64,000 nt of DNA from an uncultured bacterium (GTDB lineage Bacteria > Patescibacteriota > Saccharimonadia > Saccharimonadales > UBA4665), in the NCBI GenBank assembly GCA_963815935.1, contig CAWFIL010000008.1, positions 162,088-226,087 of the forward strand. The letters run 5' to 3'. The notes beneath the pieces were generated by a model. The model saw only the letters and a program-made list of their open reading frames with translations. It was not told the origin of the DNA and made no database searches. Made by a program: the position numbers and the translations under genes. Below, one piece after another: positions 49,955 through 56,162 of the stretch. Within the stretch, counting starts at the first letter, position 1, and each line of letters starts with the position of its first letter.

Positions 49955-50983
49955 TTAAGGCAAAAGTTCTGGTTCTTGTACGAGCGTAATGCCAAACTTT
50001 TGCTGTACGGCATCGACTATCTTTTGTTTGAATTGCAGTAATTGTGCAGTAGACTGCGCGTGTTCATTAACGAGTACGAGGGGCTGCATGGACCAGGTGC
50101 TCATGCCGGTTTCGGGGTCATGGAAATCTTTAAAGCCAGTTTGTTCGATTAGCCAAGCTGCGGGTATTTTGACGTTGCCTGTATCGTCTGGCCAGCCAGG
50201 AATGTCGGGGAAGTCGGCGCGTAATTGGGTGAACTGGCCGTCATCCACGACTGGATTGGCAAAAAATGAACCGTTGTTGGCGACTTGCGTGGGGTCGGGT
50301 AGCTTGCTCTGGCGAATGGCAATTACCGCCCGGCGGATGATTTGTGGTGTCACGTCAGTAATCTGGTGCTCTTCAAGGTAGGCCTCAACCGCCCGATAGA
50401 ACGGCGGCTGGGGTTTGCTCTTGAGTAAGTGCAGTGTGATGGCGGTAATGAAGAACCGCCCACGGTCACCGGTCTTGAACCGGCTCGTCCGGTAGCCAAA
50501 GGCACAGTCCATAGCGGGGATGTTGACCATTTGTTTGAGCTCGCTGTCGTAGGCTTCGACACTGACAAGCACGTTGGCAATCTCTTGCCCATAGGCGCCC
50601 ACATTTTGTACGGGGGTTGCTCCGGCGGTGCCGGGGATCAGACTCAAGGCTTCAATGCCGGTGACGCCTCGCTCTACGGTGCGGGCTACGACGTTGTCCC
50701 AATTTTCGCCGGCGCCCACGGTTACATAGTAGTTCTCTTCGTCTTCGGTTTGCTCCTCAAAGCGCATAATTTTGTTGACGATAATCAGGCCTGGAAAGCC
50801 CTCGTCTTTCCAGACAATATTGCTGCCGCCGCCGATCATTAACACCGGTAGATTGCTTTGCTCGGCCCATGCTAACGCGTCGGTTAGCTCATGCCGGTCG
50901 GCGACTTCGGTCATGTAGGCCGCATTACCTCCAAGCCGCATAGTTGAGTGAGCTTTGAGGGAGACGTTTTGCAAAATGTTCAT
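49955..50983 (-). CDS. murB: UDP-N-acetylenolpyruvoylglucosamine reductase
   Basis: MNILQNVSLKAHSTMRLGG at ATG 50983, FAD-binding region VLMIGGGSNIV, and C-terminal MurB domain GSFFANP. Confidence 0.92.
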   Translation of the reverse strand: MNILQNVSLKAHSTMRLGGNAAYMTEVADRHELTDALAWAEQSNLPVLMIGGGSNIVWKDEGFPGLIIVNKIMRFEEQTEDEENYYVTVGAGENWDNVVARTVERGVTGIEALSLIPGTAGATPVQNVGAYGQEIANVLVSVEAYDSELKQMVNIPAMDCAFGYRTSRFKTGDRGRFFITAITLHLLKSKPQPPFYRAVEAYLEEHQITDVTPQIIRRAVIAIRQSKLPDPTQVANNGSFFANPVVDDGQFTQLRADFPDIPGWPDDTGNVKIPAAWLIEQTGFKDFHDPETGMSTWSMQPLVLVNEHAQSTAQLLQFKQKIVDAVQQKFGITLVQEPELLP

Positions 50984-51052
50984 ATTGGTATTATAGCGCA
51001 CCGCATCCAGCGCTTGCGCGATTAACAGAGAGGCGCTACTATAAAGTGGTTT

Positions 51053-51595
51053 ATGAACGAGAAGAAGCAAGACCTACCATTCAAGAAGCTTGGTGACCGC
51101 CTAAAAACGATCCGTCAAAAGATGCACGAAAGTGTGGCCGAAGTCTCTGGTGCTGTCGAGATCGACGAGCCCATGCTACAGCGCATTGAACAAGGTGCAG
51201 AGCGTCCGAGCGAAGATATCCTGATGCTTCTGATTAGTCATTTTGGCATGCATGACGACGAAGCTGCCGGTCTATGGCAACTAGCTGGTTATGATCAGCC
51301 CCGCGCTCACGATCATGACAGTGATGACACCAATAATGGCAAGGCCACTATCCTGGTTATGGCTGTTGACCCGCGGGTGATCTACAGTGATGGTGTGCAG
51401 GTAACCGCCAACAACAATGGTGTAGTTATCTCGTTCTCTCAGAACAACGGCAACCAGAATCCACTGACGACCGCTAAGATCGGCATGAGCCGCGAGCAAG
51501 CCCAGGGTGTTGTCCGGGCGCTCCAAGATGCCATGGTCCATTCCGAGCCGAAGCAGCTTTCTGACGGCTTTCACAACAAAGACCAAGCAAATTAG
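51053..51595 (+). CDS. XRE-family HTH protein with an uncharacterised C-terminal domain
   Basis: LGDRLKTIRQKMHESVAEVSGAVEIDEPMLQRIEQG. Divergent from murB. Confidence 0.7.
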   Translation: MNEKKQDLPFKKLGDRLKTIRQKMHESVAEVSGAVEIDEPMLQRIEQGAERPSEDILMLLISHFGMHDDEAAGLWQLAGYDQPRAHDHDSDDTNNGKATILVMAVDPRVIYSDGVQVTANNNGVVISFSQNNGNQNPLTTAKIGMSREQAQGVVRALQDAMVHSEPKQLSDGFHNKDQAN

Positions 51596-51631: not shown

Positions 51632-51706
51632 AGGGATTTAAGCATTAGTGTTATGCTTTTCCGCATGACTGAGCACACAAACTAACTTCTGGCTGAGGGT
51701 GTTTAT

Positions 51707-53458
51707 ATGGTAACGCGTTTGCCTGTCCCGGGTAGGGACGGTGGCATGTGGGGCGATCTGCTCAATGAGTTCCTGAGTATTGAGCATAATGATGACGGTA
51801 GCTTAAAGCTGCGGGCTGACATGTCTAAGTTTGCCGACACAACGGCACCCTCTACGTTCACAAAGCGACTGATTATTAATGAGCCGGGGGCTGGTGCAAG
51901 TACATTACAGCTGCCGGACACGACCGGTTCCACTGGTATTACTTTTGGCTCTGATACAAATCTATTTCGCTCAGGGAGTGGGCAGCTACAAACCGCCAGT
52001 ACTTTCTTTGTGGTGCGGGCTAGCAGTAGTGTTGCTGGTCTTGGCGTAACAACCTCAGGCGACTCTACGCGTCGGTTCCAGGTAAACACCGATGGTAAAC
52101 TTCTCTGGTCGGGCGGCTCAGGTAGCCAAGATACAACGATGATCCGTGATACATCAGGCGGACTCAAGATTGCTCAAACAAGCGGTACCACCGGTTCACC
52201 AGCCACGCCTACACTTAGTCTTGTGCCATCTGGTGTGACGTCCGGCTCCCCAACGGGCGGCGGCACACTTTTAGTTAACCAAGGTACCAACCCGGGATCG
52301 GCGCTGAATGTTAACTCGTCGGCTGGTTCTGGCGCGCTGGGTCGTCTAGTAAATATCACGGCCAGTAGCTCTCTTTTCGACAAGCCTGCAATGCACGTGG
52401 ACTATGCCGGTACAAGCAATGCGGTCGAGGTGAGCAGTACTGGAACGGGTACGACTGGAAACGCGCTCAACGTGGTGTCAACTAACAACAACGACTCAGC
52501 TGTTGGTGTTAATGGCACAGAGATTAGCCGGGGTACGGTTAAGATTGTCCACAACTATCCTGGGCAGAGCGATGCAAACGCATCAGCCCTTTCACTGCGA
52601 GCGAACGGCGTCGGTACTGCCGCGCAGGGCATCTTTTTTGACTCGGAAAACGGCGGAACGACCGGCAACCTAATGAAGTTTCGCAACGCTGGTGTAGATA
52701 AATTTATACTGGGCCCAAACGGTAGCCTGTACACGTCGCAGAATATACAAATTGGTTCGACGACGGCCGATACGGGTAGCGGTGTGGGCGTGATCGGTTT
52801 CAAACAGGCTTCGACGATACCTACGACTAACCCCGCAGCTGGCGGTGCTATTTTATACGCTGACGCTGGTGTTCTGAAGTGGCGTGACCCAAGTGGAACC
52901 GTGTATACCGTTGGTGGTAGCGTAAGTTCGGTTACGTCCAAGAATTTCGAGCCAAGCGACCAGAGCTATAACGGCTGGGCGTACGATCCCATTGCTGCCG
53001 CTAACAACACCCAGCCTACAGCTGGCCAGCCGGTTCTCATTAAAGTGAAAGCCTCACAAACGGCCACGATAAGCACTATCTATCTAAATGTAAACAATGC
53101 GGGTTCGGGCTTTACGGCGAGTGCGTCGTATGCGGCCCTGTATGATACGAGCGGAAATCTGCTTGCTCAAAGTGCCGACCTTGCTGCGACACTGAATAGT
53201 ACTGGTGCAAAGGCGATTAGCCTCGGGTCTACCCCTAGTGTGACGGGTGGCACCTTTTACTATGTATATATTGTTGTGAATGCGACCACCATGCCTGCCC
53301 TCAACCGTGCTGGTAACGTAGGTGCTATGAACCAAAACCTGGGGCCGGGTACGTATCGCTTTTGTACACTTGGCAGCGGCATATCTTCGCCGCCCTCGAC
53401 GATTGACCTAAATACCAGTGTTGCATTGTCTGTCTCATACTGGGCGGCAATTGCTTAG
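51707..53458 (+). CDS. Phage tail-fibre-like / receptor-binding-like G/S/T-rich protein without a signal peptide
   Basis: As I recall, the N-terminal pattern LPVPGRDGGMWGDLLNEFLSIEHNDDGSLK matches minor tail or tail-fibre proteins of actinobacteriophages and related actinobacterial proteins. It is followed by long G/S/T/N-rich beta-type segments. Confidence 0.55.
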   Translation: MVTRLPVPGRDGGMWGDLLNEFLSIEHNDDGSLKLRADMSKFADTTAPSTFTKRLIINEPGAGASTLQLPDTTGSTGITFGSDTNLFRSGSGQLQTASTFFVVRASSSVAGLGVTTSGDSTRRFQVNTDGKLLWSGGSGSQDTTMIRDTSGGLKIAQTSGTTGSPATPTLSLVPSGVTSGSPTGGGTLLVNQGTNPGSALNVNSSAGSGALGRLVNITASSSLFDKPAMHVDYAGTSNAVEVSSTGTGTTGNALNVVSTNNNDSAVGVNGTEISRGTVKIVHNYPGQSDANASALSLRANGVGTAAQGIFFDSENGGTTGNLMKFRNAGVDKFILGPNGSLYTSQNIQIGSTTADTGSGVGVIGFKQASTIPTTNPAAGGAILYADAGVLKWRDPSGTVYTVGGSVSSVTSKNFEPSDQSYNGWAYDPIAAANNTQPTAGQPVLIKVKASQTATISTIYLNVNNAGSGFTASASYAALYDTSGNLLAQSADLAATLNSTGAKAISLGSTPSVTGGTFYYVYIVVNATTMPALNRAGNVGAMNQNLGPGTYRFCTLGSGISSPPSTIDLNTSVALSVSYWAAIA

Positions 53459-54123
53459 CGGGGGTCGTCGCTAAAGAGTCGTACGCGCATTAGAAACAGC
53501 CGCAAAAGGACCACAATTGCGTGAAACACCAATCCTGCGCCCAGTATTAGCACTATTAACTGTTTGGCGCTCTCTGCAACGGGTACTTGCCCAAGGACAA
53601 CCCTGGGTGCTGTATGATCCAATGCCTGTATCATTGGGAGTAGACCAACTACAAAGATAACTGCAAAGATTATGACCACGCATAGCCGCCACGCAGCCAC
53701 CTCTAAGAACGATGTAAGGCCTACGTGTTTTTTGTAACCATAGGGCGTGATCTGTATGTAATCTTCGGCTGCCCGCCATCCCTTATACGCGTAGACGCTG
53801 TACTCGACCACTAAGTATACGACCAGTCCTAATGTTCCCCACAAGAAAAGCGTGGCGATTTTACCAACTAGTGCGCTGTGAGTAAGCGTGGCCACTGGTT
53901 GTACGATATGGTTGGTGTAGGCCACGCCCCATTCACCATCGAGTAGGTTTGGCAAAGAGGTGCCTATCTCTACGCTGCGTGATACCAGATACCCCACCAC
54001 CACCAAACTACCCAGCCCTACGCAAATAAGAGCACTTATGGGTGACGGCCACAGGCTGCGGAAGAGTTTATAGCGGAAAGTTGTCTTTTTATTTGTGGGC
54101 ACTACATAAATAGTATATACCAA
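53455..54123 (-). CDS. Hypothetical 4-5 TM membrane protein
   Basis: 222 aa and hydrophobic. Its stop overlaps the convergent upstream gene stop. Confidence 0.55.
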   Translation of the reverse strand: MVYTIYVVPTNKKTTFRYKLFRSLWPSPISALICVGLGSLVVVGYLVSRSVEIGTSLPNLLDGEWGVAYTNHIVQPVATLTHSALVGKIATLFLWGTLGLVVYLVVEYSVYAYKGWRAAEDYIQITPYGYKKHVGLTSFLEVAAWRLCVVIIFAVIFVVGLLPMIQALDHTAPRVVLGQVPVAESAKQLIVLILGAGLVFHAIVVLLRLFLMRVRLFSDDPR

Positions 54124-54199: not shown

Positions 54200-56023
54200 A
54201 TGGGAAACGTGAGAAAAACTACTACTACTCAAACCGCCAAGAGGCCATCATCAGTTTCAGGCAAGAAGAAAGTTTCAAATACTTCTTGGTTAGCGCGCAT
54301 GCGCATGACGCGCTATGGCAAGCCGCTGGTGTATGTATTTGTTTTTATGCTCATTGGGGTGGGTACGCTAGCGTACACCTCAGCGGCTACCACAACATAT
54401 GGCATGTGGGGTGGCGATGTAACCCCCAAGATTATTACGGCTGATGATCGCCATGACCTTGAGCTTGGCATGAAGTTCAAACCAACGGTCGCTGGCTATG
54501 TTACGGGCGTACGTTTCTATAAGGGCGCTCAGAATAAAGGTACACATACAGGAAGCCTATGGAACTCTAACGGCCACCTGTTGGCCACGGTCACATTCGA
54601 GAACGAGACGGCAAACGGTTGGCAAACGGCCGCCTTTGACCATCCTGTTAGTGTTGCTGCGAATGTGACATATGTAGTGTCTTACCATGCGCCAATGGGT
54701 CGGTATTCGGTTAACTTCCATTACTTTAGCGAAAGTTCACGTCAGCACAAAAAACTGGTTGCTCTTAAGGCTAGCAAGCATAGCGCCAATGGAGTGTATA
54801 AATACGGCAATGGTACTAGGTTCCCCGACGAGGATGGCTCCGGAGCTAACTACTGGGTAGATGTTGTTTTTACCAACAAGCTATTTAACGCACCAGAAGC
54901 ACCTGCGGCGCCCGGTAACCTTACTGCAAATGTCCAGAGTGATAAAAGCGTAGTCCTCCGTTGGCAGGCAAGCAGTAGTGCTAGTCCGATCGCTGCGTAC
55001 CAAGTATATCGCGACAGCCAACAGCTTGCCACGACCGCGGATACCAGCTACCAAGATACGACCGCCGAGGCTGGCAAAACGTATACATACGACGTCCGTG
55101 CGGTTGATAGTACGGGTGCCAAGTCGGCAGCTTCAATCGGGGTAGTTGTCGGTATTCCTTCCAACCCAAGCAGTGGCGGAAGTAGTAGCGGCAATGGCGG
55201 TAGCAGCGGCGGATCTGGGTCTAACTCTGGATCGGGTTCTTCGGGCAGTAATACGGGTGGCAACTCAAGCGGCGGTAGCCCTAGTGGTCCTAGTACGGGC
55301 AGCGCAGCGGATCTCTTTAATGCCTCCAAAAAAGAGATTGCTATGGAGCTGGTCTCGAGTGCCGAGAATTCCTCGCTCAACTGGAAGGCGCAGTATGCAT
55401 ATATCGAAGATATCGGTGACGGTCGCGGTTACACTGGGGGCATCATCGGCTTCTGCTCCGGTACGAGTGACATGCTGGCTATGATTCAGTATTATAACCA
55501 GATACAGCCAGGCAATATTCTTGCTAAATACATCCCAGCCCTGCAAAAGGTCAATGGAACTGCTTCGCACTCTGGCCTAGGTGATGCGTTCGTAAATGAT
55601 TGGAAGGCGGCCGCCAAAGATGTCAAGTTCCAGGAGGCGCAGGACTACGAGCGTGATACGGTATACTTCAACCCCTCGGTCAACCAGGCTATTGGTGACG
55701 GCCTGCATGCGCTTGGGCAATTTACCTACTACGATGCCATGGTGATGCATGGCCCTGGTAATGATCCGGTGAGCTTTGGTGGCATCCGTGCTACGGCTAT
55801 GAAGAAGGCTAAAACTCCCGCACAGGGCGGCGACGAGACTGCGTACATCAACGCTTTCCTCGACGCCCGTAAGGCGGCCATGCTCACCGAGGCAGCACAC
55901 GACAACACCGATCGTGTCGATACCGAACAGCGCGTATTTTTGCAGCAAAGCAACCTCAACCTAGACCCGCCACTTCGTTGGACAGTGTATGGCGACGCAT
56001 ACGCAATAACAACCAATCCCTAG
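54200..56023 (+). CDS. Secreted or anchored multidomain protein: DUF4082, fibronectin type III, G/S linker, GH46 chitosanase
   Basis: TM/signal at residues about 40-60. DUF4082-like segment GMKFKPTVAGYVTGVRFYKG...GWQTAAF. Fn3 segment LRWQAS...YQVYRD...YTYDVRAVD. GH46 core ELVSSAENSSLNWKAQYAYIEDIGDGRGYTGGIIGFCSGT from nt 55310. Confidence 0.88.
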   Translation: MGNVRKTTTTQTAKRPSSVSGKKKVSNTSWLARMRMTRYGKPLVYVFVFMLIGVGTLAYTSAATTTYGMWGGDVTPKIITADDRHDLELGMKFKPTVAGYVTGVRFYKGAQNKGTHTGSLWNSNGHLLATVTFENETANGWQTAAFDHPVSVAANVTYVVSYHAPMGRYSVNFHYFSESSRQHKKLVALKASKHSANGVYKYGNGTRFPDEDGSGANYWVDVVFTNKLFNAPEAPAAPGNLTANVQSDKSVVLRWQASSSASPIAAYQVYRDSQQLATTADTSYQDTTAEAGKTYTYDVRAVDSTGAKSAASIGVVVGIPSNPSSGGSSSGNGGSSGGSGSNSGSGSSGSNTGGNSSGGSPSGPSTGSAADLFNASKKEIAMELVSSAENSSLNWKAQYAYIEDIGDGRGYTGGIIGFCSGTSDMLAMIQYYNQIQPGNILAKYIPALQKVNGTASHSGLGDAFVNDWKAAAKDVKFQEAQDYERDTVYFNPSVNQAIGDGLHALGQFTYYDAMVMHGPGNDPVSFGGIRATAMKKAKTPAQGGDETAYINAFLDARKAAMLTEAAHDNTDRVDTEQRVFLQQSNLNLDPPLRWTVYGDAYAITTNP

Positions 56024-56068
56024 CTGAGTGCGTTGTTTAGCTACGAGCGCAGTAAGTGTGTAGTAATC

Positions 56069-56077
56069 TGTTATAAT
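56069..56077 (+). promoter_or_regulatory. Extended -10 (TGTTATAAT) for tRNA-Arg(CCG)
   Basis: It ends 8 nt before the tRNA 5' end. Confidence 0.5.
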
Positions 56078-56085
56078 AGCCGCAT

Positions 56086-56162
56086 GCGCCCGTAGCTCAG
56101 CTGGATAGAGCGTTGGTTTCCGGTACCAAAGGCCGGGGGTTCGAATCCCTTCGGGCGTACCA
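56086..56162 (+). tRNA. tRNA-Arg (anticodon CCG), CCA encoded
   Basis: Acceptor GCGCCCG/CGGGCGT and anticodon arm TTGGT-TTCCGGT-ACCAA. Confidence 0.9.

Follow-up and report, generated by a model that had tools for sequence, protein, structure and literature searches.

A DUF4082-Fn3-GH46 chitosanase in a variable slot of a Saccharimonadales genome: probable function and history

Introduction

The genome of an uncultured Saccharimonadales bacterium contains a chitosanase gene whose catalytic domain closely resembles that of a Streptomyces enzyme, and in which this domain is preceded by modules that the Streptomyces enzyme lacks. The locus raises the question of whether the gene is functional, on what substrate its product would act, and how it came to be in this lineage. 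In this work we analysed a stretch of 64,000 nucleotides (the window, C8:162088-226087) of a 1.36-Mb genome in nine contigs (G000; 90.9% complete, 4.74% estimated contamination), in which the chitosanase gene lies on contig C8, a contig of 310 kb with typical composition. The reading that we prefer, and to which we would assign a probability of about 0.6, is that the gene encodes a functional, exported group-A endo-beta-1,4-chitosanase of glycoside hydrolase family 46 (GH46), which acts on environmental, probably fungal, chitosan, and that the catalytic domain goes back to an old inter-phylum transfer.

GH46 has been divided into groups A-E, of which group A is mainly actinobacterial; the family is a member of the lysozyme superfamily, and carbohydrate-binding modules (CBMs) are uncommon on chitosanases (PMC6097792). 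Cultured Saccharibacteria are epibionts, mostly of Actinobacteria (e.g. PMC8764695). An earlier interpretation made from the letters of the window (below, the sequence-only reading) had described the GH46 domain as strikingly similar to the chitosanase CsnA of Streptomyces N174, had proposed an actinobacterial origin for it, and had suggested as one possible substrate a polymer made by a locus at 34.5-45.5 kb of the window.

Results

The catalytic domain

The open reading frame (ORF) of the chitosanase starts with ATG, ends with TAG and encodes 607 amino acids (aa). Its C-terminal part matched the Pfam model Glyco_hydro_46 (PF01374) at aa 383-592 over the full length of the model (positions 1-210 of 210); the score was 313 bits, the cut-off 27 and the E-value 1.2e-93. 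The top sequence match in the Protein Data Bank (PDB) was 1chk_A, the N174 chitosanase CsnA (E 4.4e-120), query residues 370-604 aligning with chain residues 3-237 without a gap. Counted by hand from this alignment, 177 of the 235 positions are identical (75%), which bears out the earlier estimate of more than 70% identity; the two sequence blocks quoted at that time also recur letter for letter in the protein (aa 377-422 and around aa 544-586).

The catalytic glutamate in the motif SAENSS and the catalytic aspartate in IGDGRGYT, both pointed out by the sequence-only reading, are E389 (codon 55364-55366) and D407 (codon 55418-55420). Together with T412 they align gap-free to Glu22, Asp40 and Thr45 of 1chk (N174 numbering), which are the general acid, the general base and the residue positioning the water molecule of CsnA, respectively. 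R409, D424, D512, R557, R572, W395, W468 and W594 correspond to Arg42, Asp57, Asp145, Arg190, Arg205, Trp28, Trp101 and Trp227 of N174, which are substrate-binding and structural residues. All 11 CsnA functional residues examined are thus present in the query, and they are invariant in 23 fusion proteins of the same architecture. Among the PDB sequence matches the group-A references 1chk, 4ily and 4olt scored 405, 332 and 298 bits, compared to 124 (7c6c) and 26 bits (1qgi) for two structures of other GH46 groups. In a phylogenetic tree described below, built with the named references of groups B-E left out, the query clustered with N174-like rows and not with outgroups of 40-50% identity. By its sequence the domain belongs with the conventional, N174 CsnA-like chitosanases of GH46 group A.

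Compared to the nearest genomic homologs, the proportion of nonsynonymous differences (pN) in the GH46 domain was approximately 0.10 and that of synonymous differences (pS) 0.72-0.83, the latter being saturated. From the saturated pS, the low pN and the conservation of the functional residues we infer that the chitosanase gene is functional, is under strong purifying selection and is old within its clade. Because the active-site and substrate-binding residues of CsnA are fully conserved, the specificity for chitosan is most likely unchanged.

Domain architecture and N-terminus

The sequence-only reading had described the catalytic domain as fused to a signal or anchor sequence, a DUF4082 module, an Fn3 module and a Gly/Ser linker, and the Pfam matches and the amino acid composition agree with this description (Table 1). 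The start at M1 is supported by the long basic N-terminal segment, which is common to 21 of 22 aligned homologs; the remaining one (P0021) is 5'-truncated. The features of the n-, h- and AxA-type c-regions of a Sec signal were seen and are conserved, the n-region being atypically long (41 aa). The AxA-like site reads T-S-A|A in the query and A-S-A|A in most homologs. The N-terminus would thus be a Sec signal peptide, cut at a putative site of the signal-peptidase-I type, or else a signal anchor that stays uncleaved.

The DUF4082 domain (PF13313) scored 174 bits against a cut-off of 28.4. The PDB matches of the Fn3 domain include the Fn3 domain of chitinase A1 (1k85), and it is likely that Fn3 serves as a spacer. 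The linker is made of 21 Ser, 17 Gly and 5 Asn among its 49 residues and differs in length among the homologs.

An AlphaFold2 model of aa 63-237, with a mean local confidence score (pLDDT) of 91.3 and a predicted template modelling score (pTM) of 0.87, shows a beta-sandwich. Its best PDB-type fold match was the PHR domain of MYCBP2 (3gbw; template modelling score, TM-score, 0.55), and further matches were found to the central fibre (gp20) of mycobacteriophage Douge and to the tail tip of Bxb1. When the model was compared with a viral library, minor tail proteins of Streptomyces, Mycobacterium and Gordonia phages gave TM-scores of 0.5-0.56 and one unnamed viral protein 0.78. Similarity to CBM35 and CBM6 was weak (approximately 0.33). 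In sister enzymes the place of DUF4082 is taken by ricin-B/CBM13, discoidin/CBM32 or peptidoglycan-binding modules, and because DUF4082 fills this place, our best inference is that it is a putative targeting or binding module. Four more DUF4082 domains are carried by three other large proteins of the genome: one of 765 aa has DUF4082 alone, one of at least 627 aa has two DUF4082 and two Big_5 domains, and one of 1154 aa combines DMFA2_C with DUF4082. DUF4082 thus recurs among the large proteins of this genome. A literature search yielded essentially nothing on DUF4082 apart from passing mentions.

Table 1. Features of the chitosanase locus (positions in the window) and related genes elsewhere (handle of the contig or locus, then positions)
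Feature	Position	Strand	Basis
murB, left flank of the slot	49955-51070	-	
XRE-type HTH gene, divergent from murB, conserved left flank	51053..51595	+	Pfam
HylP/phage-hyaluronidase-like fibre protein	51707..53458	+	Pfam PF07212, E 8e-33; phrog_2332 hyaluronidase, E 3e-25
Membrane protein with four transmembrane segments, divergent from the chitosanase	53455..54123	-	no Pfam or PHROG match
Complete DUF4082-Fn3-GH46 chitosanase gene (P0001)	54200..56023	+	ORF listing, translation
N-terminal basic segment, aa 1-41, 11 Lys/Arg, predicted cytoplasmic	54200..54322	+	composition; length and charge conserved in homologs of the same architecture
Hydrophobic helix, aa 42-59, followed by T-S-A|A	54323..54388	+	sequence and alignment
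DUF4082, aa 74-220, PHR-like beta-sandwich	54419..54859	+	Pfam PF13313, E 1.7e-51
Fn3 domain, aa 237-308	54908..55123	+	Pfam PF00041, E 7e-8, 33 bits (cut-off 25)
Flexible linker rich in Gly/Ser/Asn, aa 321-369	55160..55306	+	composition
GH46 catalytic domain, aa 370-607	55307..56020	+	Pfam, E 1.2e-93; 1chk, E 4.4e-120
tRNA-Arg(CCG), conserved right flank, followed by ychF	56086..56162	+	ARAGORN
Other DUF4082 protein of the genome (L096)	C8:150397-153831		
Other DUF4082 protein of the genome (L097)	C3:1-3204		
Other DUF4082 protein of the genome (L100)	C2:459500-463400		
Homolog of the four-segment membrane protein	L104:5215-5772		
Homolog of the four-segment membrane protein	L105:5240-5764		
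Homolog of the four-segment membrane protein	L003:1191-1859		
Ricin_B(CBM13)-GH46 gene	L047:2266-3720		
Ricin_B(CBM13)-GH46 gene	L060:2308-3711		
PG_binding_1-GH46 gene (P0061)	L113:5047-7203		

Related proteins and exchange of N-terminal modules

In a search of 5.8 billion proteins we found 22 others with the same full-length layout (58-70% identity over the whole protein, 72-85% within the GH46 domain). Seven more have DUF4082 and GH46 without Fn3, which brings the number of DUF4082+GH46 proteins to approximately 30, from soil metagenomes. In our searches every DUF4082+GH46 protein with an organism label was assigned to Saccharimonadales; P0014, which comes from a genome of the same genus (G004), is labelled Candidatus Saccharimonadales by NCBI. 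The sequence-only reading did not recognise the architecture. It appears to be undescribed in the literature searched, but it is not unique, as shown by the proteins just mentioned.

GH46 was also found together with F5/8-type C, ricin-B, pectate-lyase-like beta-helix, dockerin and PG_binding_1 modules, and one protein (P0035) has a faint GH18 match beside GH46. The best named Streptomyces proteins, from Streptomyces sp. DvalAA-14 and S. polygonati, were 79% identical to the query in GH46. Two Saccharibacteria metagenome-assembled genomes (MAGs), represented by L047 and L060, carry a ricin-B-GH46 gene at the same murB-HTH (helix-turn-helix) locus. By their GH46 domains, these two form the sister group of P0026 and P0027, both of which are DUF4082-GH46 proteins (support 100/98), which indicates that N-terminal modules have been swapped on closely related catalytic domains. 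P0061, a PG_binding_1-GH46 protein encoded on the Logan contig SRR21396292_21706, is nested within the query's own clade of 14 rows (see below). Next to its gene lie a transposase of the IS1595 family, Replic_Relax and restriction-modification genes of type ISP, so that this branch of GH46 is found in the setting of a mobile element. It must be noted that the label 'Woesebacteria' of L067 (JASFQB010000002.1) looks wrong, as its GH46 is identical to that of G260, a genome of the same order as the window.

Phylogeny and age of the gene

A maximum-likelihood tree was built from 103 GH46 domains, which came from named genome loci, from metagenome proteins and from 50%-identity representatives of a search of 1.8 billion proteins. 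The query fell in a clade of 14 rows (98/89), itself inside a clade of 44 rows (95/81). Every row with a Saccharimonadota label lies in the larger clade, as does every DUF4082 fusion in the tree except P0016, which stays in the basal polytomy; one 'Patescibacteria group' row and several doubtfully binned MAG contigs also belong to it. Most Actinomycetota (21 labelled rows), including the N174-like Streptomyces rows, form a separate clade of 35 rows (95/91). At its base the tree splits into a polytomy, from which further Actinomycetota branch off. When the query clade was constrained to group with the N174-like Streptomyces rows, the log-likelihood fell by 74 units (p-AU 0.041 in the approximately unbiased, AU, test), a marginal result, obtained for a group that was defined after the tree had been seen.

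Of 401 genomes sampled from the order, 3 carried GH46, and so did two of the ten genomes of the genus that were searched (G000 and G004). In three of four genomes of the genus that align over the present site, the gene is missing from it, a further sign of a non-vertical history. Ten of 201 sampled Actinomycetes carried it, all but two of them with genomes of 7-10 Mb, and of the 80 named genome loci with the best matches, 66 belong to Actinomycetota. Between the query's GH46 domain and its counterparts in three actinomycete genomes the identity is 70-79%, whereas serine hydroxymethyltransferase (SHMT), a very conserved housekeeping enzyme, is 52-60% identical between the window and the same three genomes. 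Elsewhere in Patescibacteria, a genome of the same family (G344) has a 53%-identical, long-branch copy of GH46, and a 'Parcubacteria' copy groups with a Streptomyces protein. As these copies represent unrelated GH46 lineages, their sequences point to repeated acquisitions of GH46 in Patescibacteria. The rarity of GH46 in the order, the prevalence of Actinomycetota among the best loci, the higher identity of GH46 than of SHMT and the unrelated copies in Patescibacteria together make simple vertical inheritance unlikely. It remains unlikely even though all labelled closest homologs are from Saccharimonadales, an observation that the sequence-only reading had linked to vertical descent.

The G+C content (GC) of the gene is 0.524 and that of its third codon positions (GC3) 0.540, compared to genome means of 0.531 and 0.578. 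In synonymous-codon likelihood the whole gene ranks at the 47th percentile of the genome. Its composition is native, as noticed earlier; the corresponding values for the GH46 part are 0.53 (GC), 0.605 (GC3) and the 74th percentile. Because codon usage is native and the synonymous sites are saturated, no recent transfer is visible, and the inter-phylum transfer of GH46 is old. Its direction was probably from Actinomycetota to Patescibacteria. The proposal of an actinobacterial origin therefore stands as far as a transfer between phyla is concerned, given the GH46 and SHMT identities and the frequencies of 3/401 and 10/201, with the amendment that the event is old and that its direction has to be sought outside the tree.

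The locus and its neighbours

The chitosanase gene occupies a slot whose conserved flanks and present content are listed in Table 1. The HTH gene of the left flank had matches at the DNA level in five genomes (G001, G002, G003, G004 and G005) and by tblastx in L003, L047 and L060. In G001 and G005 there is nothing in the slot, and the tRNA gene follows approximately 100 bp past the HTH gene, an empty site; G003 has the same layout and is apparently empty, its contig ending inside the tRNA gene. G002 has a HylP-like fibre gene alone. The window holds the HylP-like gene, a membrane protein with four transmembrane segments (4-TM protein) and the chitosanase, and L003, a 1.4-Mb MAG, has the membrane protein, the chitosanase and a NUDIX gene. 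In L047 and L060, which are more distant Saccharibacteria, the ricin-B-GH46 gene lies directly past murB-HTH, and no tRNA gene was found within the 3 kb of downstream sequence examined. Variable presence between conserved flanks beside a tRNA gene was thus seen in G001, G002, G003, G005, the window and L003. The public label of L003 (DATIJU010000010.1, 'Bacillota bacterium SMAG_U15699') looks wrong, as the contig is collinear with the Saccharimonadales window over murB, the HTH gene, the membrane protein, the chitosanase and tRNA-Arg.

There is no integrase or recombinase among the ORFs from 49.9 to 60.7 kb, and no significant att-like direct repeats flank the slot, which rules out a classical integrative island. 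Apart from the HylP-like fibre gene, the island contains no phage structural or integration genes. A phage as vector was also rejected, since a scan of IMG/VR yielded no confirmed viral contig with a close relative, the only match being a distant one to phrog_20173. The region is a variable slot with a mobile two-gene cassette consisting of the 4-TM protein and the chitosanase. When 51640-51700 was set against 56060-56086, L085 and L086, we noticed at the left junction a degenerate copy of the promoter-like region of the tRNA gene, TATTAGAATAGGG...GCATTAG. In the empty sites of G001 and G005 this region directly precedes tRNA-Arg(CCG), and in the window the HylP-like gene begins right past the left-junction copy.

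The 4-TM protein adjoins the chitosanase in the window, L002, L003, L104 and L105, divergently upstream where the orientation was read, and lies just downstream of it in L014. In L104 and L105 the pair occurs in unrelated contexts. The protein is 45% identical to its homologs in L104 and L105 and 41% identical to that in G004. Of 61 related genomes, 9 contain weaker relatives, and GH46 is absent from some of these nine. The idea that the 4-TM protein is a GH46-specific factor is therefore only partly upheld, and the neighbours of the weaker homologs in GH46-free genomes gave no clue. The HylP-like gene is independent cargo, in no fixed operon with the chitosanase, because it stands alone in G002 and is absent from the chitosanase-bearing L003.

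Metabolic context

We found no NagB in the 90.9%-complete genome, whose single PF01182 match is 6-phosphogluconolactonase next to gnd, and no GH2 exo-glucosaminidase or GH3 enzyme either. These absences speak against chitosan as a major carbon source, a weak negative at this level of completeness. glmS and one ROK kinase are present; as glmS argues against amino-sugar auxotrophy, auxotrophy was ruled out as a driver. The contig that bears the PF01182 match (pgl beside gnd), C6, is outside the window and is 169.5 kb long. Its GC is 0.576 and its mean GC3 0.621, compared to 0.508-0.524 and approximately 0.55-0.58 (single-gene C9 excepted) in the other eight contigs. C6 may be mis-binned, which would be consistent with the contamination estimate of 4.74%.

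The locus at 34.5-45.5 kb contains genes for two GT2 synthases with weak similarity to chitin synthases, two CE4 deacetylases and two GH10 enzymes. The chitosanase gene is 9 kb away from it, behind murA, glyA and murB. A GT2 synthase is present in both GH46-positive genomes of the genus (G000 and G004). Close GT2 orthologs (at least 49% identity) occur without GH46 in G007, G044 and G050, and at E<=1e-20 a GT2 match is missing from the GH46 carriers G344, G260, G429 (L003) and G431 (L047). Presence and absence of the two are independent in both directions, which speaks against a coupling of the chitosanase to the GT2/CE4/GH10 locus. The earlier suggestion that the substrate comes from this locus, which moreover has its own GH10, is thus not supported.

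Discussion

The observations described above can be accommodated in the following model. The protein would be exported by the Sec system by means of its long basic N-terminus and single hydrophobic helix, and it would then either be released by cleavage at the AxA-like site or stay tethered to the cell membrane. DUF4082 and Fn3, on a Gly/Ser tether of approximately 50 residues, would most likely target the catalytic domain to, or space it on, a polysaccharide or a cell surface. As suggested by the conservation of the CsnA residues, the enzyme would cut GlcN-GlcN and GlcNAc-GlcN bonds (GlcN, glucosamine; GlcNAc, N-acetylglucosamine) of partly deacetylated chitin by an inverting mechanism, in which E389 would be the acid and D407 and T412 would activate water. 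The GH46 domain may have entered Patescibacteria long ago from the actinomycete-dominated group-A pool by inter-phylum transfer, may then have been fused to various binding modules, and would now persist, with the 4-TM protein, as a rare accessory cassette in large-genome soil Saccharimonadales. The role is the least certain part of the model. In soil, the enzyme could break down chitosan of fungi or necromass, which would serve amino-sugar salvage, relieve the cell from the antibacterial effect of chitosan, or benefit a host. CsnA of Streptomyces reportedly protects against the antibacterial action of chitosan.

Several observations do not sit easily with this model. The fold matches of DUF4082 are to generic beta-sandwiches with TM-scores around 0.5, and in other proteins the partners of DUF4082 are Ig-like surface domains and not glycoside hydrolases. 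A purely nutritional role is weakly supported, given that no downstream chitosan catabolism was found. The clade of 44 rows also takes in rows from contigs that are doubtfully binned or non-CPR, namely L030 (label Nitrososphaera), P0126 (label Legionellaceae) and P0128 (on a contig of 3 Mb). The direction of transfer from Actinomycetota to Patescibacteria rests on distribution and not on topology, because of the basal polytomy, and the substrate specificity is read from residue conservation only.

It is worth considering that the enzyme might be directed against a host, DUF4082 binding the actinobacterial envelope and the tethered GH46 domain cutting a GlcN-containing wall glycan, thereby aiding attachment or feeding. 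Cultured Saccharibacteria live mostly on Actinobacteria, the fold of DUF4082 resembles tail and fibre domains of actinophages, a phage HylP-like fibre gene is the neighbour, one sister enzyme has a peptidoglycan-binding domain, and the genome has no detected chitosan catabolic pathway. GH46 itself lies within the lysozyme superfamily (PMC6097792). However, the substrate-binding residues of CsnA are all unchanged, which speaks for chitosan specificity; the likeness of fold (TM-score approximately 0.5) is to beta-sandwiches, which are very common; G002 and L003 show that the HylP-like gene and the chitosanase can each be present without the other; and the sister enzymes with ricin-B, and the one with a faint GH18 match, look like ordinary chitin or chitosan degraders. 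We know of no beta-1,4-GlcN polymer established in actinobacterial envelopes. A gene that is found in less than 1% of the order cannot, in addition, be core to the epibiotic lifestyle, and on balance we consider a host-directed device unlikely. In a bolder form of the idea, the chitosanase, its 4-TM partner and the HylP-like fibre would make up a phage-like host-engagement toolkit of a soil epibiont, in which DUF4082 docks on an actinobacterial or fungal host and GH46 breaches its GlcN-containing wall. This seems improbable to us; if true, it would mean a new biological substrate for a chitosanase of the lysozyme superfamily and a first assigned function, host-surface or chitosan binding, for DUF4082.

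The other explanations concern the cell's own polysaccharide and the provenance of the gene. The gene content of the GT2/CE4/GH10 locus, and the fact that G000 and G004 have both GH46 and a GT2 synthase, would be compatible with an enzyme that trims or recycles the partly deacetylated polysaccharide made there, but the co-occurrence fails both ways, the locus has its own GH10 hydrolases, and the chitosanase is 9 kb off in a separately variable slot, so that a self-directed role is very unlikely. We give still less credence to a recent direct acquisition from a Streptomyces-like host. The identity to N174 CsnA (75%) and to two Streptomyces proteins (79%) and the position of the gene beside a tRNA gene in a variable region would be expected after such an event, and so would a high G+C content, which is characteristic of Streptomyces genes; the GC of 0.53 and GC3 of approximately 0.60 of the GH46 part are, however, within the range of the genome. 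Closer homologs (up to 85%) exist in Saccharimonadales-type fusions, synonymous sites are saturated within the clade, and neither an integrase nor flanking direct repeats were found. Codon usage, saturation and the position of the query clade apart from the N174-like clade, the joining of which was marginally rejected by the AU test, argue strongly against a recent transfer from Streptomyces. As to an artefact of assembly or binning, in which a foreign fragment was chimerically joined to a Saccharibacteria bin, there are the 4.74% contamination estimate and one contig (C6) of deviant GC to be accounted for. The gene is nevertheless inside the 310-kb contig C8, its flanks are collinear with four genomes of the same genus, the pair of membrane protein and chitosanase between murB-HTH and tRNA-Arg recurs in the independent assembly L003, and the codon usage is native, which leaves an artefact with a practically negligible probability.

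The locus is a clean case of an accessory carbohydrate-active enzyme that is common to ultra-small epibionts and to Actinomycetota, their usual hosts. It offers an empty site, a conserved two-gene cassette and the shuffling of modules (DUF4082, ricin-B, peptidoglycan-binding) on one catalytic scaffold, and it gives DUF4082 a testable role as a targeting module. The results suggest that the turnover of chitosan or fungal necromass involves a few soil Saccharimonadales with large genomes, or that these use the enzyme at the interface between cells. The gain is one of ecological and evolutionary context and not of a new mechanism.

Similar proteins in Saccharimonadales MAGs already bear the automatic annotation chitosanase. 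The entries named 'chitosanase [Candidatus Saccharimonadales bacterium]' (P0014, P0023 and approximately 28 unnamed metagenome proteins) have the same architecture as the query and do not differ from it in kind. In our literature search, judged from titles and abstracts, we found no publication describing DUF4082-GH46 proteins of Saccharimonadales; in the four papers that name both Saccharibacteria and chitosanase, each word occurs once. What appears to be undescribed is the DUF4082-Fn3 architecture with its long basic signal or anchor, the 4-TM partner, the slot between murB-HTH and tRNA-Arg, and the swapping of modules.

It is instructive to compare the query with the known chitosanases. With N174 CsnA it shares the catalytic Glu and Asp, Thr45, Arg42, Asp57, the Arg205-Asp145-Arg190 network and the three Trp residues; both enzymes come from soil bacteria, and CsnA is secreted, just as the query is predicted to be exported. 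CsnA is, however, a single-domain protein with an ordinary signal peptide from a high-GC actinomycete, whereas the query adds a basic tail of 41 aa with a transmembrane helix, DUF4082, Fn3 and a Gly/Ser linker of 49 aa, is encoded by DNA of approximately 52% GC and belongs to another subclade. GH46-like domains are also carried by phages, as the match of the query's GH46 to phrog_20173 (E 1.5e-46) shows, and soil viruses have been reported to encode chitosanases as auxiliary genes. A parallel in layout exists with the modular GH46 enzymes of actinomycetes that carry CBM32 (F5/8 type C) or CBM13 (ricin-B), and of which Csn2 of Kitasatospora setae is an example (PMC6097792). These, too, have an N-terminal beta-rich module followed by a C-terminal GH46 domain; the query differs from them in the nature of the module, which is here DUF4082, a putative binder with a PHR-like fold, together with Fn3.

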